A stretch of 64,000 bases of DNA from the IMG/VR virus record IMGVR_UViG_3300031992_000016, positions 32,001 to 96,000 of that record; one strand, written 5' to 3'. Below, in pieces: positions 1,537-62,754 of the stretch; position 1 is the stretch's first letter; every line of letters starts with the position of its first letter. A model generated the notes under the pieces. That model was given only the letters and a program-made list of their open reading frames with translations, was not told the DNA's origin and did not search any database. This DNA comes from a virus (lineage: Duplodnaviria; Caudoviricetes). A program made the position numbers and the translations under genes.

Positions 1537-1655
1537 GATTGTTGTCCGGCCGGCAACCCAGTGGATGGATTGTTACGCATCCCGTGCTACTACTGCGAGA
1601 GGGATCACGCTTAGGCTTTGCATGCGCACCACGGCCCATGAAGGTAGCACACTAT

Positions 1656-1732
1656 GCTCCCTTAGCCCAATTGGCAGAGGCAGTTGGCTAAGAACCAACA
1701 CAGTGAGAGTTCGAATCTCTTGGGGAGTACCA
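1656..1732 (+). tRNA. tRNA-Leu(AAG), short variable loop
   Basis: GTTGG-CT-AAG-AA-CCAAC; GTTCGAATC T loop; A73-CCA. Confidence 0.85.
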
Positions 1733-2170
1733 CCAGGGCATGCCTGGTTTATATTGTCTAGCAACAAGGCAATCACACTGCAATGTTGTATGTAGGTAAA
1801 TGATGGGGAGGAGTTAAAGGCGTCCTCTCTCTGGGGCAATGCGGTAATACCTGCGCGCGGGTAGCAAAGTTACCCTACCAGTAGTTAGAAGTCTGTAAAA
1901 CTTCCATTGGGCTGGCTGAGAGGCCCTGGTCCATCTTCCTTGCCAACAGTGATAGTCCTGTTTAAGGCAAAAAACATGCGGGTTAGCTAAACGCGATGAT
2001 GGCTAGTTTTAGGGTTTTACGCCACGCTTTTAAGGACTTTGGCATTGATAAGCAAATTTGCTTGTCTATACTAGTTAATGCCGCAGTTCTAATTTGTCTG
2101 CACACTCGATTGGTAGTGTCCCACAAAAAAACTTGTTGAAGAGTGAAGTTGGTGGTTTTAGCTCTTAAAA
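1733..2170 (+). ncRNA. candidate large structured ncRNA (unidentified)
   Basis: About 440 nt with no credible ORF, GC-richer than flanks, many hairpins, embedded anticodon-like hairpin at 1888-1904. Confidence 0.4.
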
Positions 2171-3607: not shown

Positions 3608-3635
3608 TTTTAAATAATCAATAGGAGGCCATTCT

Positions 3636-3845
3636 ATGAGTTTTAAAGACGCCTATAAAGCCATGCGTGAAGGTAAAGCTATTTCTAATACTGAGCATCC
3701 TGATGATCAGTGGGTTTGGAAGAATGACTAGATGATTTTCCAAAGTGGTGATGGCATTAGCTATCCGGTTAATGATATGCTATCTATTGAATATCTCCTC
3801 GATTAGATTGTACAAGATATTTGGTTTGTTGTAGAAGAAGAATAA
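3636..3845 (+). CDS. small hypothetical protein, DUF2829/Tad2-like pattern (2 TAG)
   Basis: GGAGG RBS; MSFKDAYKAMREGK...DIWFVVEE; 69 aa with TAG=Gln. Confidence 0.6.
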
Positions 3846-3857
3846 ACTTCTTCTTAT

Positions 3858-3932
3858 GTGGAGTGTCGTCTAATGGTAAGACAGCAGATTGTGGCTCTGC
3901 GAACGCAGGTTCGATTCCTGTCATTCCACCCA
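3858..3932 (+). tRNA. tRNA-His(GTG)
   Basis: G-1:C73; GCAGA-TT-GTG-GC-TCTGC; CCA. Confidence 0.95.
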
Positions 3933-4005
3933 GCTAGCGGTGAGGGCAATTGACGAATGGGGCTAGCGGAATCCGCACGCGACGTCGGTAAAAAAGCTCC
4001 TATAT

Positions 4006-4080
4006 GCGCTGAACCCTCGTCGGTCGGGGAGAGGTCTGCAAAACCTCTGTTAGTGGGTTCAACTCCCACTCAGCGCTCCA
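4006..4080 (+). tRNA. tRNA-Cys(GCA)
   Basis: GAGGT-CT-GCA-AA-ACCTC; U73-CCA; atypical D region. Confidence 0.85.
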
Positions 4081-5354: not shown

Positions 5355-5447
5355 AGCCCCTTAGTTCAACGGTAGAACACCGGTCTCTAAAACCGTTATA
5401 TCCCTCTGAAGGAGGTAGTCTGGGTTCGAATCCCAGAGGGGCCGCCA
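5355..5447 (+). tRNA. amber suppressor tRNA (anticodon CTA), probably Gln-charged, long variable region
   Basis: CGGT-CT-CTA-AA-ACCG with anticodon at 5387-5389; D arm GTTC/GAAC; T arm CTGGG-TTCGAAT-CCCAG; G73-CCA. Confidence 0.9.
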
Positions 5448-46529: not shown

Positions 46530-47012
46530 ATGCGCTACGCAGGAATTATATATGATGATACCGCCGCAGCGCCGGGTTTAAGTCTCACATTCTTTACCCA
46601 AGGTTGTCCTATTCATTGCCCGGGTTGCCATAACCCGGGCACTTGGGACCCAGATGGCGGACGTGAATTTACACCAGAAGTATTAAGTAGAGTATTAGAT
46701 GGACTTACTAAAAATGGTGTAACTCGTAATTTTTGTATTATGGGCGGAGAACCGTTAGCTCCATATAATGTTTTTCTTACACATCTATTGGTAAAAACAG
46801 TAAGAGAAAAATATCCGCAAATTCAAATTTATTTATGGACTGGTTATACATTGGATCAAGTAAAAGAAAATGCAAAGAGCAATCCACATATTGACGCAAT
46901 TCTATCTAATATAGATTGCATCATTGATGGACCATTCATTCAATCACAACGTGATATTACATTATTTATGCGCGGTAGTGCCAATCAAAGAATTACATAT
47001 TTGACGGAATAA
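46530..47012 (+). CDS. nrdG: anaerobic RNR activase
   Basis: GCPIHCPGCHN, GGEP, DGPF, RGSANQR. Confidence 0.92.
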   Translation: MRYAGIIYDDTAAAPGLSLTFFTQGCPIHCPGCHNPGTWDPDGGREFTPEVLSRVLDGLTKNGVTRNFCIMGGEPLAPYNVFLTHLLVKTVREKYPQIQIYLWTGYTLDQVKENAKSNPHIDAILSNIDCIIDGPFIQSQRDITLFMRGSANQRITYLTE

Positions 47013-49678: not shown

Positions 49679-49680
49679 AA

Positions 49681-49727
49681 AAAAATAAAGGGACGTAGAT
49701 AAAAAATCTACGTCCCTTTATTTTTTT
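49681..49727. terminator. bidirectional terminator at the strand switch
   Basis: TAAAGGGACGTAGAT-AAAAA-ATCTACGTCCCTTTA with A and T runs on both sides. Confidence 0.9.
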
Positions 49728-50132
49728 TTACCCTACAACAGGTGTTTTCTTTTCATTAACCAATGATTCAATATATGCCTTAGTGAATAGATCAAAATCA
49801 CCTACGACCGCGGTTAGATACTGCTTAGCATCTTCACTTAATACTGTAATTACGCTATTGTAAGTTAATTGAAATGCTTCTTTCTGTGCTTCCGCAGTGA
49901 AAGCATTTTTATTCTTTAAAGCATTAACATAAGTTTGGTTCGTCATTTCTACGCAACGAGCAACTGTATCTTCAAACATACTTAAATACTTGTAATATAC
50001 AGTATCCTCTTGACCAGCTTTATAATTGTCGATCTTTGCGCGAACCCACTTAACAAAATAAGTAGTCAATATCCCCAAAAAAGGAATGATAACTAACTTA
50101 AAAATCTCATTTAAAATTTCAGCCCAATTCAT
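49728..50132 (-). CDS. holin-like protein (LL-H type)
   Basis: One N-terminal TM helix; V...NQTYV.ALK...F..EAQKEA; IESLV; within the lysis cluster. Confidence 0.65.
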   Translation of the reverse strand: MNWAEILNEIFKLVIIPFLGILTTYFVKWVRAKIDNYKAGQEDTVYYKYLSMFEDTVARCVEMTNQTYVNALKNKNAFTAEAQKEAFQLTYNSVITVLSEDAKQYLTAVVGDFDLFTKAYIESLVNEKKTPVVG

Positions 50133-50475
50133 TGTCATAATCCTCCGAATTATCTTCTTCGTTATTATCACTAATTGCTGCTGCATCTTGTATTTCTTTG
50201 TATGTTTCACTTATCTTTTTATAATTCTCAATACCTGCTTTTGCAGTATAACCCAAACGTAAGGAAACATATACTGTTGTTACACCAGCCAAGGCGCTTG
50301 AACCAAAAGATGCTAATCCTTGATTAATAACAACAATAGCAAGAATTGCCAAGAGTGATACAGCATATACGACAATATCTATAATAGTAAGTCGCTTACT
50401 CCATTCAAGCGGTCGCTGTTGTCGCTTTCGCTAATTTTTGGAGCGCTGCTACTAATTCTTTTGCTTCTATCTCAC
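50119..50475 (-). CDS. 2-TM membrane protein, possible holin (4 TAG; start inferred)
   Basis: GTG 50475 after AAGGTG; basic N-terminus then LEWSK-TM-TM-YTAKAGIEN. Confidence 0.5.
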
Positions 50476-51823
50476 TTGAACACGCCACCTTTACATACCA
50501 AGATTTTGGTGTATCAGGTGTGGTAGGTTCAACAGGCACAGATACAGGAATTAAAAATTCATTCATCATATATCCGGTCTGTCCGTTATACATAATGCGG
50601 TCCCATTCAGTGCCATGATCAATAATATCAACAATAGTCCCAGTTGATATTTTTGCTATTACACCAAAATTAGTGCCCGCGCCAGAACGCATACGCACTG
50701 TCGTGCCGCTTTTTGATTTTACTGTTGCCTAGTATAACACTGATAAAACCTCCCCTTCTGATGTACCAGCATTTGCTAGTTCTTCTGGTGTATATAAACC
50801 CGCGGGGATTGCATAGTGCGTCCAGCCATATGTACCTAATTCTTGACGTTTAACGCCAGACTTGCTACCAGCTGCATGCATAAAAGTGCCATCGCCCAGA
50901 TAAACACCAGTATGTGACATTGGATTAGATGTTGGTGATTCATGATATAAAGCACAAATCTTATCTTTTGGCATCTAATCAATTGGTCCTTTTCGCACCC
51001 AGATACTTGATTTCCATTGTGAAGATGCGCCAGATACTAAGGAAATACCAATTTGCGCGAAGCATAACTTCGTAAATCCTTGGCAATCATAAACCTACTT
51101 ACCGAGCCACTTCTTTACAATGTTATAATCAACTTTGTCTGGATATTGAGCAATACGCGCACGAATAAATTGTTCGGTTGCAATTTGTCCTTGAGCACCA
51201 TAGATATAACCACAACCTTCTTTACTTAACGCATACTCTCTGATTACTTTCTCTTTCTCCTATGAGGTCATTACTTCAAATACCTCCTTTACTACTGCAC
51301 CAGGATAATAAAATTGTAAAATATCCTAATATGTAAAGCCCATATTTGCCATCTTCTTTGCGCCAACTTGGCTCATACCAACACAATGTCCATTGCGCGC
51401 AGTAGTTGTATAGGGGTCATCTTTACTAACTAGCCAAGCGCGTTCTCCACCCCAGACTTCTTTAGAGCTTTTTATATGTCCGCCATTGCTAGAAGAGAAA
51501 GGCACTGGGCTACATAAAGTGTTTTTATATGTTAAAACTAATGCATTAGTTGCTTCAACACAACGATAAGTAGCAGCATAAGCATTATCAATTGATCTCG
51601 AATATCGATATGCCTAATGCTTAGCGCTATTATCTGTCATATTTTTAATAGTATAAGCATTAGTTCGTGCGGCAATTGCTTGGGCTTTTACAGCTTCATC
51701 CGGCCCATTCATTTCACTAGGAACACAACCTAGCAAATATGTTTCTGGATGAATATTGATCGTGTCATTAACATTAACGCCCCAAGCTTCCGCATTACTT
51801 TCTCTTGTTAAAGTTAATCTCAT
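50405..51823 (-). CDS. endolysin: SpoIID/LytB-like + NlpC/P60-like + SH3b, 472 aa (6 TAG)
   Basis: SEM...EAVKAQAIAART...H*AY...GHCVGMSQVGA; YIYGA...DCQG...HTGVYLGDG..MHA; RMRSGAGTNF...GQTGYMM. Confidence 0.85.
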
Positions 51824-52983
51824 TATAATTTCTCCAATAAAAGCGCCCATTGCGCATGTGTTATGGGGGTTTCAACTTCATCTATATTATCTGGGATTTC
51901 ATAATTTTCATTACGCCCTTGCAATTGATGCATTAATATATCGTAATGGTTCTACGTAATTGGAATGTCATAATCCCAATCCAAAGTGTTAATAGCTGGC
52001 ATAATGGCTGCCATTTGCGCACTTTCTTGTGTTAATCTATTAACATGGCCGATAAACTAACGACATAATGTATATGCAGTCATTAAGTCATCAATCTAAA
52101 ACATAGTTTCATTCTCATCTTCTAATGTATCAATAAAAACAAAAGAAGCGCTTCGATAGAATTCATTTGATGTATCTAATGAACAACCTGCTGAACCAAC
52201 TATTTTAGAGTCTAAAACTGCACATACTTTAACATATAATGAAGGTGTTGTGTTAATTTCATTATAGTTTTTTGTACCAAGAAACGATGTTAAAGGAACA
52301 ATCATAGATGTCTAATTTGTACGTTCCGTATCAATCCAACCTAAAGAAACTAATTCTCCACTGTTTGGAGTTAATAATGTTTTATCATTAGGCCCAGCAA
52401 ATACACCCACAGAATAATGATCAATTGTACCAGTAAAATTTTCTGGTGGAGACCAGCGCACCGCTACACGATTATAATACTAAGGCCATACTTCTATTTC
52501 TACTGGCGCTGGAATAGAAGTATCAATAGTTAAACTACGATAGTAAATACGTACATCTACATAACTAATAATAATCGTTCCATTAATTGCGTAAGGCCAA
52601 AATGTAATCTAAAAAGTTTGGCTTGTCTTATTAGTCAAACCTGTTATTTCATATTCATAACTGCCAAACGTTGAACCATTAATATTGCGAACTGGAAACT
52701 CTGAACTTTCTAAATAGTTAGTCCCGAAACCAACTCGTCCTTTACAATTCATTTCATAGTTAAAATCAATAACAGCTTTTGTAATTTCAACTCCGCCAGG
52801 AGGAGGATTACGTAATGTACAATTAATAGAAATAGTAGTGCCGCAGAATTGTAATTCTTCAACTGCTGCGGCCTGTGGAACATGTATATAAGTCGCCGGA
52901 GTTTCGGCGCACTATGAACTACTTTTAATTGGTTGCCCAGATGCTATGGGATAATATGTATATTTACAATTTACATTCGCCAT
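51823..52983 (-). CDS. putative structural protein, 386 aa (multiple TAG)
   Basis: Frame from ATG 52983 includes track ORF 52096..52305 and ends in TAATG overlap with the endolysin; interior only partly checked. Confidence 0.65.
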
Positions 52984-53006: not shown

Positions 53007-53345
53007 TTATTCACCATCATCTGCGTCTAAATCTTCACTAGAAGAAAAATTAACATACATTTCAAAATTGTCTCCACCATTGTATGTTTCTTGAATAGAT
53101 GTAATTCTACCTTGAACATCATTTAAATCATAAATATTATTACCACTATCACCTTTAATAGTAATACGAGAAACAGTCTGTGGCATTAAAGTATTCAAGA
53201 AAGTGGCGGTACTTGCACCAGGAACCAAACTAATATAAGCATTGCTTACTAAATCATTCTGTTCCTTGTCATATGTAGTAGTACGACTATAATTTACGAG
53301 TTGAATAGCATGAGCTGCGTCACTATTAAAAATAATTGTTGCCAT
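53007..53345 (-). CDS. hypothetical protein (tail module)
   Basis: GGAGG RBS before ATG 53345. Confidence 0.7.
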   Translation of the reverse strand: MATIIFNSDAAHAIQLVNYSRTTTYDKEQNDLVSNAYISLVPGASTATFLNTLMPQTVSRITIKGDSGNNIYDLNDVQGRITSIQETYNGGDNFEMYVNFSSSEDLDADDGE

Positions 53346-53358
53346 TAAAATGACCTCC

Positions 53359-54342
53359 TTATAAATTACCAAATAATAGTATATAACTATCATCTATTGT
53401 ATTTATATCAGTAGCGCTCGCCCAGCACCATACTGACATAATCGCATTAAATAACATATCTTTATTTGTCTATGTTATCTAATTATCTTTAAGTAATTGG
53501 CCTACTCTTTTATCAAAATTTGACCGTAAAATTTTTTCATCATAACCATCTTTATTTTTTCGCATCTAACAATCCCATAATTTTCCATCACAATCAATAG
53601 TGAATGAATCAATGCCTGCCATACAATGCGGAGTTTGTTTAGGTACTTCTATGGTTCCAAACCATTTATAATAATTCTCTGCATCATAACCGAAATAACG
53701 ACCAGGCACTTCAATGGTCGGCTTTGCACCGATATCATCAATATTAATATATGGTCTTTTTTCTACTAAAGGTATCATTTTATCATGTAATTCCTACGCC
53801 CATGCATACCAAACTGTAGAGTCGGTGCGCAAATTAATTTTAGTTAATGTCGATTTAGTAGATATTTTTAACTAAAAATTATTGGTCGGCATTTTCGTTG
53901 GGCAAGAATAAATTAAATGCTCTAGCGCGCGGATTGAATTTTTATACGCACCTTTCTAACGATTAAAATCATTCATATCTTCTGGACCATCAATATTAAA
54001 TTGGATATGTAATGTTACATCATATGATAATAATGGCATGACGAAATAACGGTATAATTCTGATGTACCGTTTGTAGAAAACATAATATTTTTGATTTGC
54101 GGCCATCGCTTTAAAATTGCAGTAATCATTGCTGAAAAATATGGTCCATTAAGTGATGGCTCCATTCCCCATAATCCAATACTGGTAGTTTCTGGGGTGA
54201 TAGTTTCAAGAATGGTTTTTGTAAATGAACCATTCTTGAAACACTCCTAAATGCGTTTATTATCATGCTCTTGATATTGCATACAACAATAAGCACATTT
54301 TAAATTACATGCATCGGAAAAATAAATGTTAAGATTTTTCAT
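53359..54342 (-). CDS. radical SAM protein with SPASM/Twitch-like C-terminal cysteines, 327 aa (7 TAG)
   Basis: CNLKCAYC (CxxxCxxC), WGMEP, STNGT, IDG, CMAG...IDCDGKLWDC. Confidence 0.85.
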
Positions 54343-54433
54343 CTTTTATTTGCACTCCACATAAAGCATTACATAAAACATTACAAAACGAAGTTTCTGT
54401 AATATTTTGATTATTATCTTCTTGCCAACGCAT
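54329..54433 (-). CDS. 34-aa Cys-patterned peptide, putative radical SAM substrate
   Basis: MRWQEDNNQNITETSFCNVLCNALCGVQIKDEKS; AAGGTG RBS; stop overlaps the radical SAM start. Confidence 0.6.
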   Translation of the reverse strand: MRWQEDNNQNITETSFCNVLCNALCGVQIKDEKS

Positions 54434-60408: not shown

Positions 60409-62754
60409 TTAACGCTCTATAAATTGTGTAGCATTAACACTAAACATTTTTTTACTTATTTGCGCAGGTTTATTTAAATCTTCTTCTGTTTCAGTAAAAT
60501 GAGAAGCTTCAAATATACCTGTTCTTTTTATTTGTGGTTTAAACTCATTGTCAGCAATATACCACTATAAATGCCGTACTTTCCATGTAACTGGATTAGA
60601 CTATCCGTTGGTTACTAGCCCTAAACTTGAATAGTCTCTGATTGGTAAATGATTAGTATTGCCATTGTTAGTGTTTGAAGCACCACGATAAATTCTAGTC
60701 CATTTATTTGCAGGAATTGCTATAATTGAAGCCAAGCGTGTGCCTGTTGCATCATTATCATTTCCTGCCCAATTTACATCAGTACCACCAGCAGTATTAT
60801 TATAGTCTGTATTTATATTTAATGCAATCGGTGTCCATACCTCAGCAGTCCAGCGGTAGGTCGCGCCATATGGTACCATTAATGCTGGCGTATCTGCTAA
60901 ACGAACTCCATAGCCCCATGAAGAAGTACCAACAGGAGATACAATCGTATATGTGTCTGTTTTTTCATCATAAGATACAGAAGTCGCACTGTTATTTACA
61001 AGTTTCGCATTGATCATCATATCATTATTTTCCTATACTTCATATGGATGCATATTACCAAATTTATCTATCTTTATACCAACATTATACAACTATTTTA
61101 TTTCCGTGTCAAGTAACGCAGTACAATAGATACGAAAATCACTATAACTACCTAATGTTTTTCTCCATACACCACCAGCCTTTGAAAAACCAATATATAA
61201 TTGACTAAACGAAGCTAACGTTTTTCCTGCTCCAATAGTTACATTACTTTTTTCGATACCATCCTAATATGTGCGCGCAGTTGTTCCATCATAAGTAACA
61301 GCATAATGATGCCATTCATTTTTTATATATGAAAAATTTAAACGCTTTACACCAGAGCCATCACTTGGGTAAATATCAAAACCACTATCACGATGATGGA
61401 ATGCAGTTAAATTATAATCGGTTGGCGCGGTTTCATTATTTGATGTACAAAAAACCGCATGACTTGTACTATTACCATAACCACTTTCTGGTTTTCCCCA
61501 CCACGTGACAGTCATTTGAGAAGGAGTTGTTAAAGTTAATGGTGTTTGGATATAACATAATCCAGTATTATTATTGGTCGTTGGCTCTGAACTATTCCAT
61601 TTTGTTGCAACAGTATATCTTTTAGTATCTGTTGTAGATATTAAATTACCAATAATAGTACCATTATGATTATATCCACTACTATCTTCAATAATATTAT
61701 TATTATATGTCTAACACCATGGAGTAGCTTTATTACCCCATTCTAATTTCATACATTTCCACTATTCAGTAGTAGTAGTAGTTATTGAAGTATTATGATT
61801 CGTAATTAATAGTTGTAATGTTGTATAATCTGTATTTAAAGCAAAAGTTACAGATGAACGTCCTGATGAAGAGGCAGCAATGACTTCCGTAGATAATACT
61901 GTTGGCCTATCACTACTACTTTTATATTGCTAAACACGAGCTTTTAATGGTTTCTGACCTGATATAGCATTGATGTCTATACTAAAAGTAAACTAATCAC
62001 CATTTTTTGCCCCTGTGGCTTCAACAAAACTAGTAATTGGCATTTCCCAAATAGTTGTATAATATTGACCAATAGAGAAATTAGTCCAAGTATTAACATT
62101 ATTATTGGTTAAATTTATAGAATTATCTAACTTATAATGTAATATTAATCCTCGCGCAATTTCTGACACTTCTGCAGATGATAAACAATGATCATACAGT
62201 CTGACATCATTCATCCACCCATTTAATGGATTGCCAGTACCTGTCTATGTAGTACCAATATAAGTAGCAGTTGCAGTTGCTTTTGTTGGCGCAGTCCCTG
62301 CGGTTCCCGCAGTTCGCAAACCATTTATATATACTGCTTTTGTATTTTTACTTTTACTATAAGTAAAACAAATATGATACCACTAATTTGCTACAAATGA
62401 TAATCCAGCGCTAAGATTAATAGTCCAACGTTCGCCAGTATCAAAATATAATTGACTAGCATTCATTATCCATGCCGCAAATCCAGTTGAAGCAGTTTCA
62501 CTACGATTACAAAATAAAGTTGCGGCAGAAAAAGAAGCCATTTTAATCCAACAGCAAAAACTCATTTCATCAGTATTATTATCCCATAAAGCCGGTGTCA
62601 ATGTGATATTACTATTGTTACTAGAAGTAAATCTATAACACTAACCAATTTTTCCATTTGTATCAACAGTAAGACTATTACTATTAACAGTAGTATCACT
62701 AATACCTTGATTATGTAAATCCCCAGTAAGGGGGAGCCATACTCGCAAACTCAT
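60409..62754 (-). CDS. tail protein with two LamG/concanavalin-like domains, 781 aa (multiple TAG)
   Basis: MSLRVWLPLTG; WYHICFTY; MNDVRLYDHCLS; WHHYAVTYDG; DFRIYCTAL; track fragments in one frame. Confidence 0.8.

Follow-up and report, generated by a model that had tools for sequence, protein, structure and literature searches.

Organization of the peptide and enzyme genes

A gene pair encoding a small cysteine-containing peptide and a radical S-adenosylmethionine (SAM) enzyme lies within the 64,000-nucleotide stretch analyzed here (the window), which is bases 32001–96000 of a virus record in IMG/VR that has 168,960 bp, direct terminal repeats and a genome GC content of 37%. An overview of the features is given in Table 1, and several aspects of the arrangement are apparent. 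First, the genes run in the order fibre gene, 34-aa open reading frame (ORF), radical SAM gene, 112-aa gene, 386-aa fibronectin type III (FN3)-type gene, endolysin gene and holin-like gene, with the pair and the flanking fibre-to-lysis genes all on the minus strand and the pair at the position first assigned to it. Secondly, the peptide ATG lies 2 nt past the fibre-gene TAA and 7 nt behind an AAGGTGA Shine-Dalgarno sequence, and the radical SAM gene starts inside the peptide ORF, sharing its final 14 nt, in agreement with the original prediction of a 34-aa ORF with its own ribosome-binding site overlapping that start. Thirdly, the 112-aa gene begins 13 nt past the radical SAM TAA, with a strong AAGGAGG site ahead of it. 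The pair had been placed between the fibre and the lysis genes, and this holds on the fibre side but not on the lysis side, where the 112-aa and 386-aa genes intervene.

The window peptide (MRWQEDNNQNITETSFCNVLCNALCGVQIKDEKS, 34 aa) has a polar N-terminal segment of 16 aa, followed by C17-N-V-L-C21-N-A-L-C25 and then GVQIKDEKS; it contains two tandem NxxC units, which arise from a 12-nt duplication. The peptide was said to be missing from gene calls, but the 34-aa ORF is a called gene in JGI/IMG on three contigs.

Conservation of the peptide ORF

Upstream DNA can be read at four loci, namely the window and three loci from one metagenome scan, L005, L006 and L007. The enzymes of these three relatives are 38–43% identical to that of the window and 48–75% identical to each other, and TAG is a sense codon in all three. 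In L005 the small ORF (MCNALCISLWINFEEDEDWFND) follows a fibre gene ending ...GRIWIHVR and overlaps the enzyme ATG by 8 nt, and in L007 the small ORF (MCNLMCLTLYLYIEEDDEWFDN), behind a fibre gene with the ending ...GRIWAYVR, likewise runs into the enzyme start, such that an overlap of the peptide ORF with the radical SAM start is common to the window, L005 and L007. The L006 ORF (MCNTLCLSLWLELEDDEEWFNEVE) is situated between two paralogous FN3 proteins, with the enzyme located after the second of these. Shine-Dalgarno-like motifs precede the peptide ORFs by 6–8 nt in L005 and L006, and by about 13 nt in L007. Whether a Cys peptide stands upstream of homologous enzymes had been set beforehand as a refutation test of the pairing, and a small CNxxC ORF is present in each of the three readable relatives.

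The peptides of L005–L007 have the form MCNxxC...EEDDEWFN and a length of about 22 aa, and the phage peptides are thus mostly leaderless, starting M-C-N. The peptide frame is the only one that is open in all three loci alike, and pairwise comparisons show 7–11 of 21 codons to be identical, with 3–4 of the 10–14 changed codons synonymous and the other changes mostly conservative (e.g. I/L, D/E); peptides and enzymes have diverged at about the same rate. Across the four peptides the invariant residues (Cys, Asn and Cys) amount to an N-x-x-C preceded by Cys. The tail of the window peptide, KDEKS, is short, in contrast to the acidic Trp-containing follower of the L005–L007 peptides. From this pattern of substitution and placement, the small ORF is real and is conserved in both position and sequence among the relatives.

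The motif CN.[LMIV]C occurs just five times in a six-frame translation of the 169-kb genome. Because it is so rare genome-wide and yet present in four of the four radical SAM clusters, the occurrence of a small CNxxC ORF beside the enzyme gene at all readable loci is, on motif counts, more than chance.

A further view is provided by frame imprints, for which over-extended N-termini of radical SAM homologs were back-translated and read in the peptide frame, the readings being inferences from degenerate codons. The imprints of homologs P0012, P0016 and P0017 have acidic runs with Trp and stop where expected. That of P0014/P0166, whose enzyme is 73% identical, is collinear with the window peptide, reading E-D...F-C-N-(A/V)-L-C-N-x-L-(H/Y)-G...K-D-E-K, and it appears to keep C-N-x-x-C and to have His or Tyr where the window has its third Cys. 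The regular CxxxCxxxC ladder was originally taken as the key feature of the peptide; what the relatives keep is C-N-x-x-C, and the third Cys is probably not retained even at 73% identity.

We considered two other explanations for the small ORF. A structured RNA in its place was rejected, as there is no Rfam family match in the peptide and radical SAM region and the substitution pattern is of the coding type. A partial duplication of the 5′ end of the enzyme gene was rejected as well, since the DNA similarity is no better than that of shuffled controls. We note that the CNxxC of the peptide (54343–54433, minus strand) resembles the start of the enzyme's own CNLKCAYC (54286–54309, minus strand), and that C-N-x-x-C also opens the cluster motif of many SPASM-type enzymes. 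An IMG/VR scan with a degenerate DNA pattern for the peptide gave no match.

Stop codon recoding

The radical SAM gene has TAG at codons 32, 129, 157, 183, 259, 288 and 291, and its 327-aa frame is open only with all seven read as sense, confirming the proposed dependence of the enzyme on TAG read-through. Because the phage code reads TAG as sense, the gene is a single intact one and not a set of fragments. Across the whole genome, ORFs of at least 150 aa hold 95 kb of sequence, rising to 160 kb once TAG is sense, and the phage encodes 33 tRNAs, one of which has a CUA anticodon. TAG was provisionally translated here as Gln (table 15), and none of the seven TAG positions coincides with a motif residue. 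The variable arm of the CUA tRNA (~21 nt) is unusual for a Gln-type suppressor, and ARAGORN labels the tRNA as Pyl; without the arm, it has no close resemblance to the other tRNAs of the phage, a comparison that is uninformative as to the amino acid. Recoding of stop codons can thus conceal whole enzymes from standard annotation.

The radical SAM enzyme

The enzyme contains the CX3CX2C motif (C12-x3-C16-x2-C19, CNLKCAYC) and a C-terminal half-SPASM motif, C240-x14-G255-x4-C260, together with C306. The second SPASM half, CX2CX5CX3C, is absent, and the seven-Cys SPASM motif is incomplete. In an alignment of 15 homologs C240, C260 and C306 are invariant and C253 is not, and with three conserved Cys as its putative cluster ligands the Twitch-like tail would have a fourth ligand position open to the substrate. 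The CX3CX2C motif is kept in 13 of the 15 homologs. The other two, P0015 and P0019, are full-length and keep the three C-terminal Cys residues and the remaining fold signature, and could be paralogs without catalytic activity that have just an auxiliary-cluster or binding function left.

Among Pfam models, Fer4_12 matches at 26 bits (cut-off 22) and PF04055 falls just below its cut-off (24.4 versus 29.5 bits), both over residues 1–143, and Pfam SPASM (PF13186), the model named originally as a check, has no match at E≤1. Matches to NCBIfam include 45 families, all far below cut-off, with peptide maturases at the top: PapB (3e-13; 49.7 bits versus 340), GggB, CcpM, HxsC (3.8e-8) and anSME, the anaerobic sulfatase maturase (TIGR03942; 30.5 bits versus 349). 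The N_Twi_rSAM match has 27 bits (cut-off 170), and among 25 listed of the 45 matches there is no named NxxC model. PapB is the top NCBIfam match for the enzyme and for most of its family (3e-13 to 3e-20; 50–72 bits), and there is also a match to PHROG 1802, “radical SAM domain-containing protein” (7.7e-12). The enzyme had been associated with ranthipeptide and sactipeptide maturation; with PapB so far under its cut-off, and with no CX3D in any of the four peptides, we do not assign it to either class. A profile search of 1.84 billion representatives recovered roughly twelve full-length (~330 aa) relatives, and a much larger set of 420–480 aa that shares only the first 230 residues, is unnamed, and has PapB as its nearest relation.

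The AlphaFold2 model of the enzyme has a predicted local distance difference test score (pLDDT) of 90.6. Its partial TIM-barrel core matches many solved radical SAM enzymes at Z 10–18 across residues 1–327, and a beta-hairpin is predicted in the Twitch region, with strands at 246–249 and after. The highest-scoring fold matches are ChlB (Z 17.9, 271 residues aligned), anSME (Z 17.4) and CteB (Z 17.2), followed by DesII (Z 14.8), TigE (Z 14.2), SkfB (Z 13.8, and first in rank with Foldseek), SuiB and BlsE (both Z 13.7), MoaA (Z 13.1) and viperin (Z 12.8); the epimerase EpeE is also among them. Because beta-strand 1 begins at residue 3, the enzyme has no N-terminal recognition element. The cluster motif, the Fer4_12 match above cut-off, the half-SPASM motif and the fold matches all agree with the original call of a radical SAM enzyme with a SPASM/Twitch-like tail, and on sequence and model together it is a true member of the radical SAM superfamily, with a tail that is probably of the Twitch type. 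The modelled fold groups the enzyme with the peptide- and protein-modifying SPASM/Twitch enzymes, and does not tell whether its chemistry is that of thioether formation, cyclophane formation or Cys oxidation.

Neighbouring genes and distant relatives

The block of fibre, peptide, radical SAM and lysis genes is bracketed by a sigma-70-type promoter consensus, which lies upstream of the fibre gene, and by a terminator-like hairpin, which lies after the holin-like gene; these patterns suggest that the block is one late transcription unit. The type of endolysin suggests a Gram-positive host.

Table 1. Features of the window and of related loci (positions without a locus prefix are those of the window).
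Feature	Position	Strand	Remarks
Small peptide ORF, 34 aa	54329..54433	-	Precursor-like; without TAG codon
Radical SAM enzyme, 327 aa	53359..54342	-	Twitch-type (half-SPASM) C-terminal domain; 7 in-frame TAG codons
112-aa all-beta protein	53007..53345	-	Acidic tail; weak but consistent tail-tube/Hcp/Dit-like fold
Tail-fibre-type gene, 1,986 aa	54436..60396	-	15 TAG codons; ends TAA
Fibre C-terminal domain, ~136 aa	54436-54846	-	Conserved, AAWNDYAEYR...GRIWIKVK
386-aa protein	51823..52983	-	Weak fibronectin type III signal (fn3 E 4.3e-4, below cut-off)
Endolysin, 481 aa	50405..51850	-	SpoIID-like, NlpC/P60 and SH3 domain matches
Holin-like ORF	49728-50210		After the endolysin gene
Sigma-70-type promoter consensus	61084..61112	-	12/12, TTGACA-17-TATAAT; upstream of fibre gene; consensus match alone
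Intrinsic-terminator-like hairpin	49680..49726	-	Strong; 20 pairs and T run; after holin-like gene; pattern match alone
Suppressor tRNA, anticodon CUA	5355..5447	+	93 nt; ~21-nt variable arm
Other Radical_SAM match	46593-46850	+	39 bits; 164-aa frame without TAG
Fibre C-terminal domain, L005	L005:193-645		
Fibre C-terminal domains, L006	L006:~1640-2052, ~3630-4040		Two fibres
Fibre C-terminal domain, L007	L007:~1550-2019		
Tube-like protein, L006	L006:7043-7348		Without acidic tail
Enzyme and following holin-like gene in L023 (IMG/VR contig)	L023:2-1266		Enzyme 41% identical, with 6 TAG codons
Distant enzyme and neighbours in L002	L002:6892-10569		Standard code; tail module
Distant enzyme and neighbours in L003	L003:6923-10575		Standard code; tail module
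Distant enzyme and neighbours in L004	L004:6848-10566		Standard code; tail module

The C-terminal domain of the fibre protein shares 49% identity between the window and L007, and in L005 and L007, too, it stands ahead of the peptide ORF. Its consensus, AxWNDYAE.R ... VC(A/S)(A/G)PNGT ... GRIWxxV(K/R), includes one conserved Cys and ends several different fibre proteins. Neither Pfam nor PHROGs matches it, and a self-cleaving chaperone and a receptor-binding tip are both conceivable roles.

Relatives of the 112-aa protein are few, namely proteins of 97% and 68% identity and the post-enzyme proteins of L005 and L006 at 31–33%. Its AlphaFold2 model is all-beta (pLDDT 82.6), and its Foldseek matches, although weak, are uniformly to proteins of the tail tube, Hcp, Dit and terminator types (best 4.8e-3 in PDB and 3e-4 in BFVD). 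A PqqD-like recognition protein was considered for this product and rejected, the fold matches being of the tail-tube type. At L023 a 143-aa homolog of the holin-like protein of the window comes directly after the enzyme, without an intervening 112-aa protein; the 112-aa protein is therefore not an obligate partner, and the enzyme can sit against lysis genes. We note that acidic tails are distributed in a complementary manner, in that the window 112-aa protein ends in SSSEDLDADDGE (53007–53045, minus strand) and the window peptide is without a long acidic tail, and in L006 the peptide carries EDDEEWFNEVE and it is the tube-like protein that has no such tail; with two lineages the observation is anecdotal. 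Homology of the 386-aa FN3-type protein to the FN3 proteins of L006 is undetectable.

The IMG/VR scans returned distant relatives alone (L002–L004 and L024–L026), plus L023 as one partial locus. The enzymes of L002–L004 have 24–29% identity and lie amid baseplate-type genes, directly upstream of a second radical SAM/SPASM enzyme and directly behind proteins of 114–188 aa that have a fibre-like N-terminus (W-T/S-P-I..GD.I.A.H.NEIKDNL) and repeat tails rich in Tyr, Ser, Asp and Gly. This arrangement looks like a system modifying full-size tail proteins. Bacterial genome contigs contained generic radical SAM genes alone, e.g. an ordinary Cys-rich cluster for a ribosomally made, post-translationally modified peptide (RiPP) in Waltera. 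The only other Radical_SAM match in the phage genome is probably an anaerobic ribonucleotide reductase activase.

Function of the peptide and enzyme pair

We favour the interpretation that the phage encodes a late-expressed peptide and maturase pair of the RiPP type that makes a peptide cyclised by a thioether at NxxC, and put its chances at a little under even. Thioether formation at NxxC is the chemistry we prefer because the bacterial enzymes NxxcB and SycC (see below) are the closest chemical precedent for the invariant N-x-x-C. The fibre gene, small ORF, enzyme gene and downstream genes would be co-transcribed as one late unit, and the 34-aa peptide would be translated from its own Shine-Dalgarno sequence. 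Ribosomes ending on the peptide ORF probably reinitiate at the overlapping radical SAM start, which has only a weak and distant GGAG, and the sequence predicts that the enzyme would be completed only when the CUA suppressor tRNA decodes its seven TAG codons. The radical SAM [4Fe-4S] cluster is predicted to be held by C12, C16 and C19, and homology and the literature point to one auxiliary cluster at C240, C260 and C306, with one iron that would be free for a substrate thiol. By analogy with NxxcB and SycC, hydrogen would most likely be taken from the conserved Asn of C-N-x-x-C, and the Asn carbon would then be joined to the Cys three residues downstream to give a small thioether ring; the window peptide, with its tandem units, could by the same analogy form two rings. 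No exporter would be needed, as lysis would free the modified peptide, and we slightly favour a role outside the cell (as an antimicrobial, anti-competitor or signal) over one in which the product stays with the tail apparatus.

A more specific proposal, which we regard as doubtful as a whole, is that a minimal Twitch radical SAM family, known so far only from uncultured TAG-sense phages, matures a mostly leaderless CNxxC peptide of ~22 aa encoded behind the tail-fibre gene. With its N-terminal Cys-Asn-x-x-Cys core and acidic Trp-containing follower, this peptide would represent a new, virus-made thioether class, and the product would be made only late, either as a weapon or signal freed at lysis or as a tail-borne adsorption cofactor.

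Several points weigh against a dedicated peptide and thioether maturase. The loci with DNA for inspection number just four, and in L006 a 265-aa gene sits between peptide and enzyme. The window peptide has just the CNxxC core in common with the L005–L007 peptides, the likeness of this core to the enzyme's own CNLKCAYC could carry another meaning, and no protease is present for the 16-aa N-terminal extension of the window peptide. The enzyme is under every curated family threshold and has a Twitch tail where NxxcB, PapB and CteB have a full SPASM domain; its top fold neighbours tie between cyclophane formation (ChlB), Cys/Ser oxidation (anSME) and thioether formation (CteB). The conserved 112-aa neighbour is tail-tube-like and not PqqD-like, and the distant enzymes of L002–L004 adjoin fibre-like proteins of 114–188 aa and not peptides. 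Finally, there is no RiPP recognition element (RRE/PqqD-like) in the enzyme or in its 112-aa partner. An RRE is dispensable for some RiPP enzymes, and its absence does not exclude function.

The same peptide could be the substrate of a different chemistry, such as formation of a three-residue cyclophane or an alpha-thioether (sactionine), epimerisation, or a Cys oxidation like that of anSME, and we think this unlikely. In its favour is the tie just mentioned, in which ChlB, a multiple cyclophane synthase, is the top match, and EpeE and SkfB are also found among the fold matches. The peptides themselves speak both ways: those of L005–L007 keep aromatic residues (W/Y at position 10 and the W-F-N/D tail) that would fit an aromatic-x-x motif, but these positions are unmatched in the window peptide, and what stays invariant across the four is Cys, Asn and Cys. 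The C/S-x-P/A-x-R motif recognized by anSME is absent from the peptide.

Alternatively, in line with the cross-linking of virion proteins raised at the outset, the enzyme may act on a full-size virion protein (the fibre, an FN3 protein or another tail part), with the small ORF as an accessory, either an assembly micro-protein or a coupling one that drives translation of the enzyme; this too seems improbable to us. The pair lies within the fibre region at all four loci with readable upstream DNA, a protein with a tail-tube fold is encoded downstream of the enzyme, and the distant enzymes of L002–L004 are found amid baseplate genes, beside fibre-like proteins and a second radical SAM/SPASM enzyme. 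Moreover, anSME, the closest solved relative by sequence, works on whole proteins. Against this, the fibre C-terminal domain has no NxxC or Cys motif seen conserved across loci, the 112-aa protein is Cys-free, and the tube-like protein is dispensable, given that the L023 enzyme is followed by a holin-like gene. The amino acid conservation of the peptide is also beyond the needs of a mere coupling ORF.

In a third view, which we consider very improbable, the small ORF would have no bearing on the enzyme or would not be translated, and the substrate would be a small molecule or a nucleotide, as for viperin, MoaA and the sugar-modifying Twitch enzymes (BtrN, DesII, BlsE). DesII, BlsE, MoaA and viperin do match the fold (Z 12.8–14.8), and the enzyme is minimal, without a recognition domain, and has homologs (P0015 and P0019) that lost CX3CX2C, but such enzymes score clearly under the peptide and protein enzymes, no Rfam family is found in the region, and the small ORF is conserved at the amino acid level, overlapping the enzyme start in several lineages.

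Radical SAM-modified peptides are known as bacterial products (bacteriocins, signals and cofactors), and prophage-borne bacteriocins are known. If the favoured thioether interpretation is correct, a lytic-type phage making its own radical SAM-modified peptide would represent a new kind of viral gene product, and a function would be gained for one phage radical SAM gene among the many that lack an explanation. The system is tiny, with a peptide of 22–34 aa and a 327-aa enzyme without a recognition domain, and a thioether-forming enzyme that works without a leader would have practical appeal for cyclising peptides.

Relationship to known systems

Searches of 50,697 GenBank phage records by blastn and tblastn, with the region and with P0001, P0012 and P0013, gave no match, and the L004 enzyme has one weak match among GenBank phages, to an unannotated record. 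The clusters nearest to P0004 in the ESM Atlas consist throughout of viral radical SAM proteins, none of them with a named function. We found no description in the literature of phage tail-module radical SAM enzymes paired with peptides, and such a pair within the late fibre-to-lysis operon of a phage with a recoded stop codon seems not to have been described before.

The HXS antiphage system (HxsA-D) is an example of radical SAM enzymes maturing a ribosomal product in phage-host conflict (PMC13128918). It differs from the phage pair in being bacterial and in having two enzymes and a full-size periplasmic substrate with HxS repeats, and is closer to the arrangement in L002–L004 than to the peptide pair.

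Among enzymes with solved structures, anSME (PDB 4K37) is the only one found by sequence (E 2.7e-6); the alignment is end to end, anSME also lacks a recognition domain, and its Aux-I hairpin Cys, C276, aligns with C260 of the phage enzyme. Its SPASM domain, however, is complete and carries two auxiliary clusters, and it oxidises the Cys or Ser within the C/S-x-P/A-x-R motif of sulfatases. ChlB, which acts on ChlA, is likewise peptide-modifying, but forms aromatic-to-aliphatic C-C links, in contrast to the invariant Cys and Asn of the phage peptides; aromatic motifs (W-F-N/D and W/Y-x-x) occur in the L005–L007 peptides, at positions unmatched in that of the window.

The thioether synthases CteB and SkfB, acting on CteA and SkfA, resemble the phage enzyme in fold, and SkfB is a Twitch-type thioether maker. 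Both differ in having an N-terminal RRE, with the matches starting at residues 93 and 106 of their chains, and identity to the phage enzyme is 17–19%. At auxiliary cluster I of CteB, the substrate Cys reportedly binds to an open site. The PapB model (NF047865; PapB acts on PapA to make the ranthipeptide freyrasin) begins, like the phage enzyme, directly with the radical SAM core and has nothing N-terminal to it, but PapB has a full SPASM domain and forms Cys-Asp links in CX3D repeats, and its match to the window enzyme is confined to the N-terminal half.

The closest chemical parallels are in two bacterial systems. NxxcB, of the NxxC subfamily of streptococcal RaS-RiPPs, forms a beta-thioether from the Asn C-beta to the Cys of NxxC, with the Cys bound at an auxiliary cluster (PMC9389541), and it has a SPASM domain (PMC10989515). 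As in the phage pair, a short NxxC precursor, NxxcA, is encoded beside the enzyme. The two differ in the SPASM domain of NxxcB versus the Twitch-like half of the phage enzyme, the enzymes being compared here by description, and in that the bacterial cluster is regulated by quorum sensing, whereas the phage pair lies in a late operon, with mostly leaderless peptides and an acidic follower. For SycC, of the AviCamCys pathway, beta-hydrogen abstraction at Asn19 and a link to Cys22 of a 22-aa precursor have been proposed (PMC10989515). SycA shares with the phage peptides the NxxC spacing and small size, and SycC is described as a SPASM protein; unlike in the phage pair, SycC acts on a C-terminal enethiol from a LanD-like decarboxylase, a partner that is not present here, and the phage motif is N-terminal. 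Set beside these systems, the phage enzyme is of an unnamed, virus-restricted Twitch type with a mostly leaderless precursor, and its chemistry would, by analogy, be that of NxxcB and SycC.

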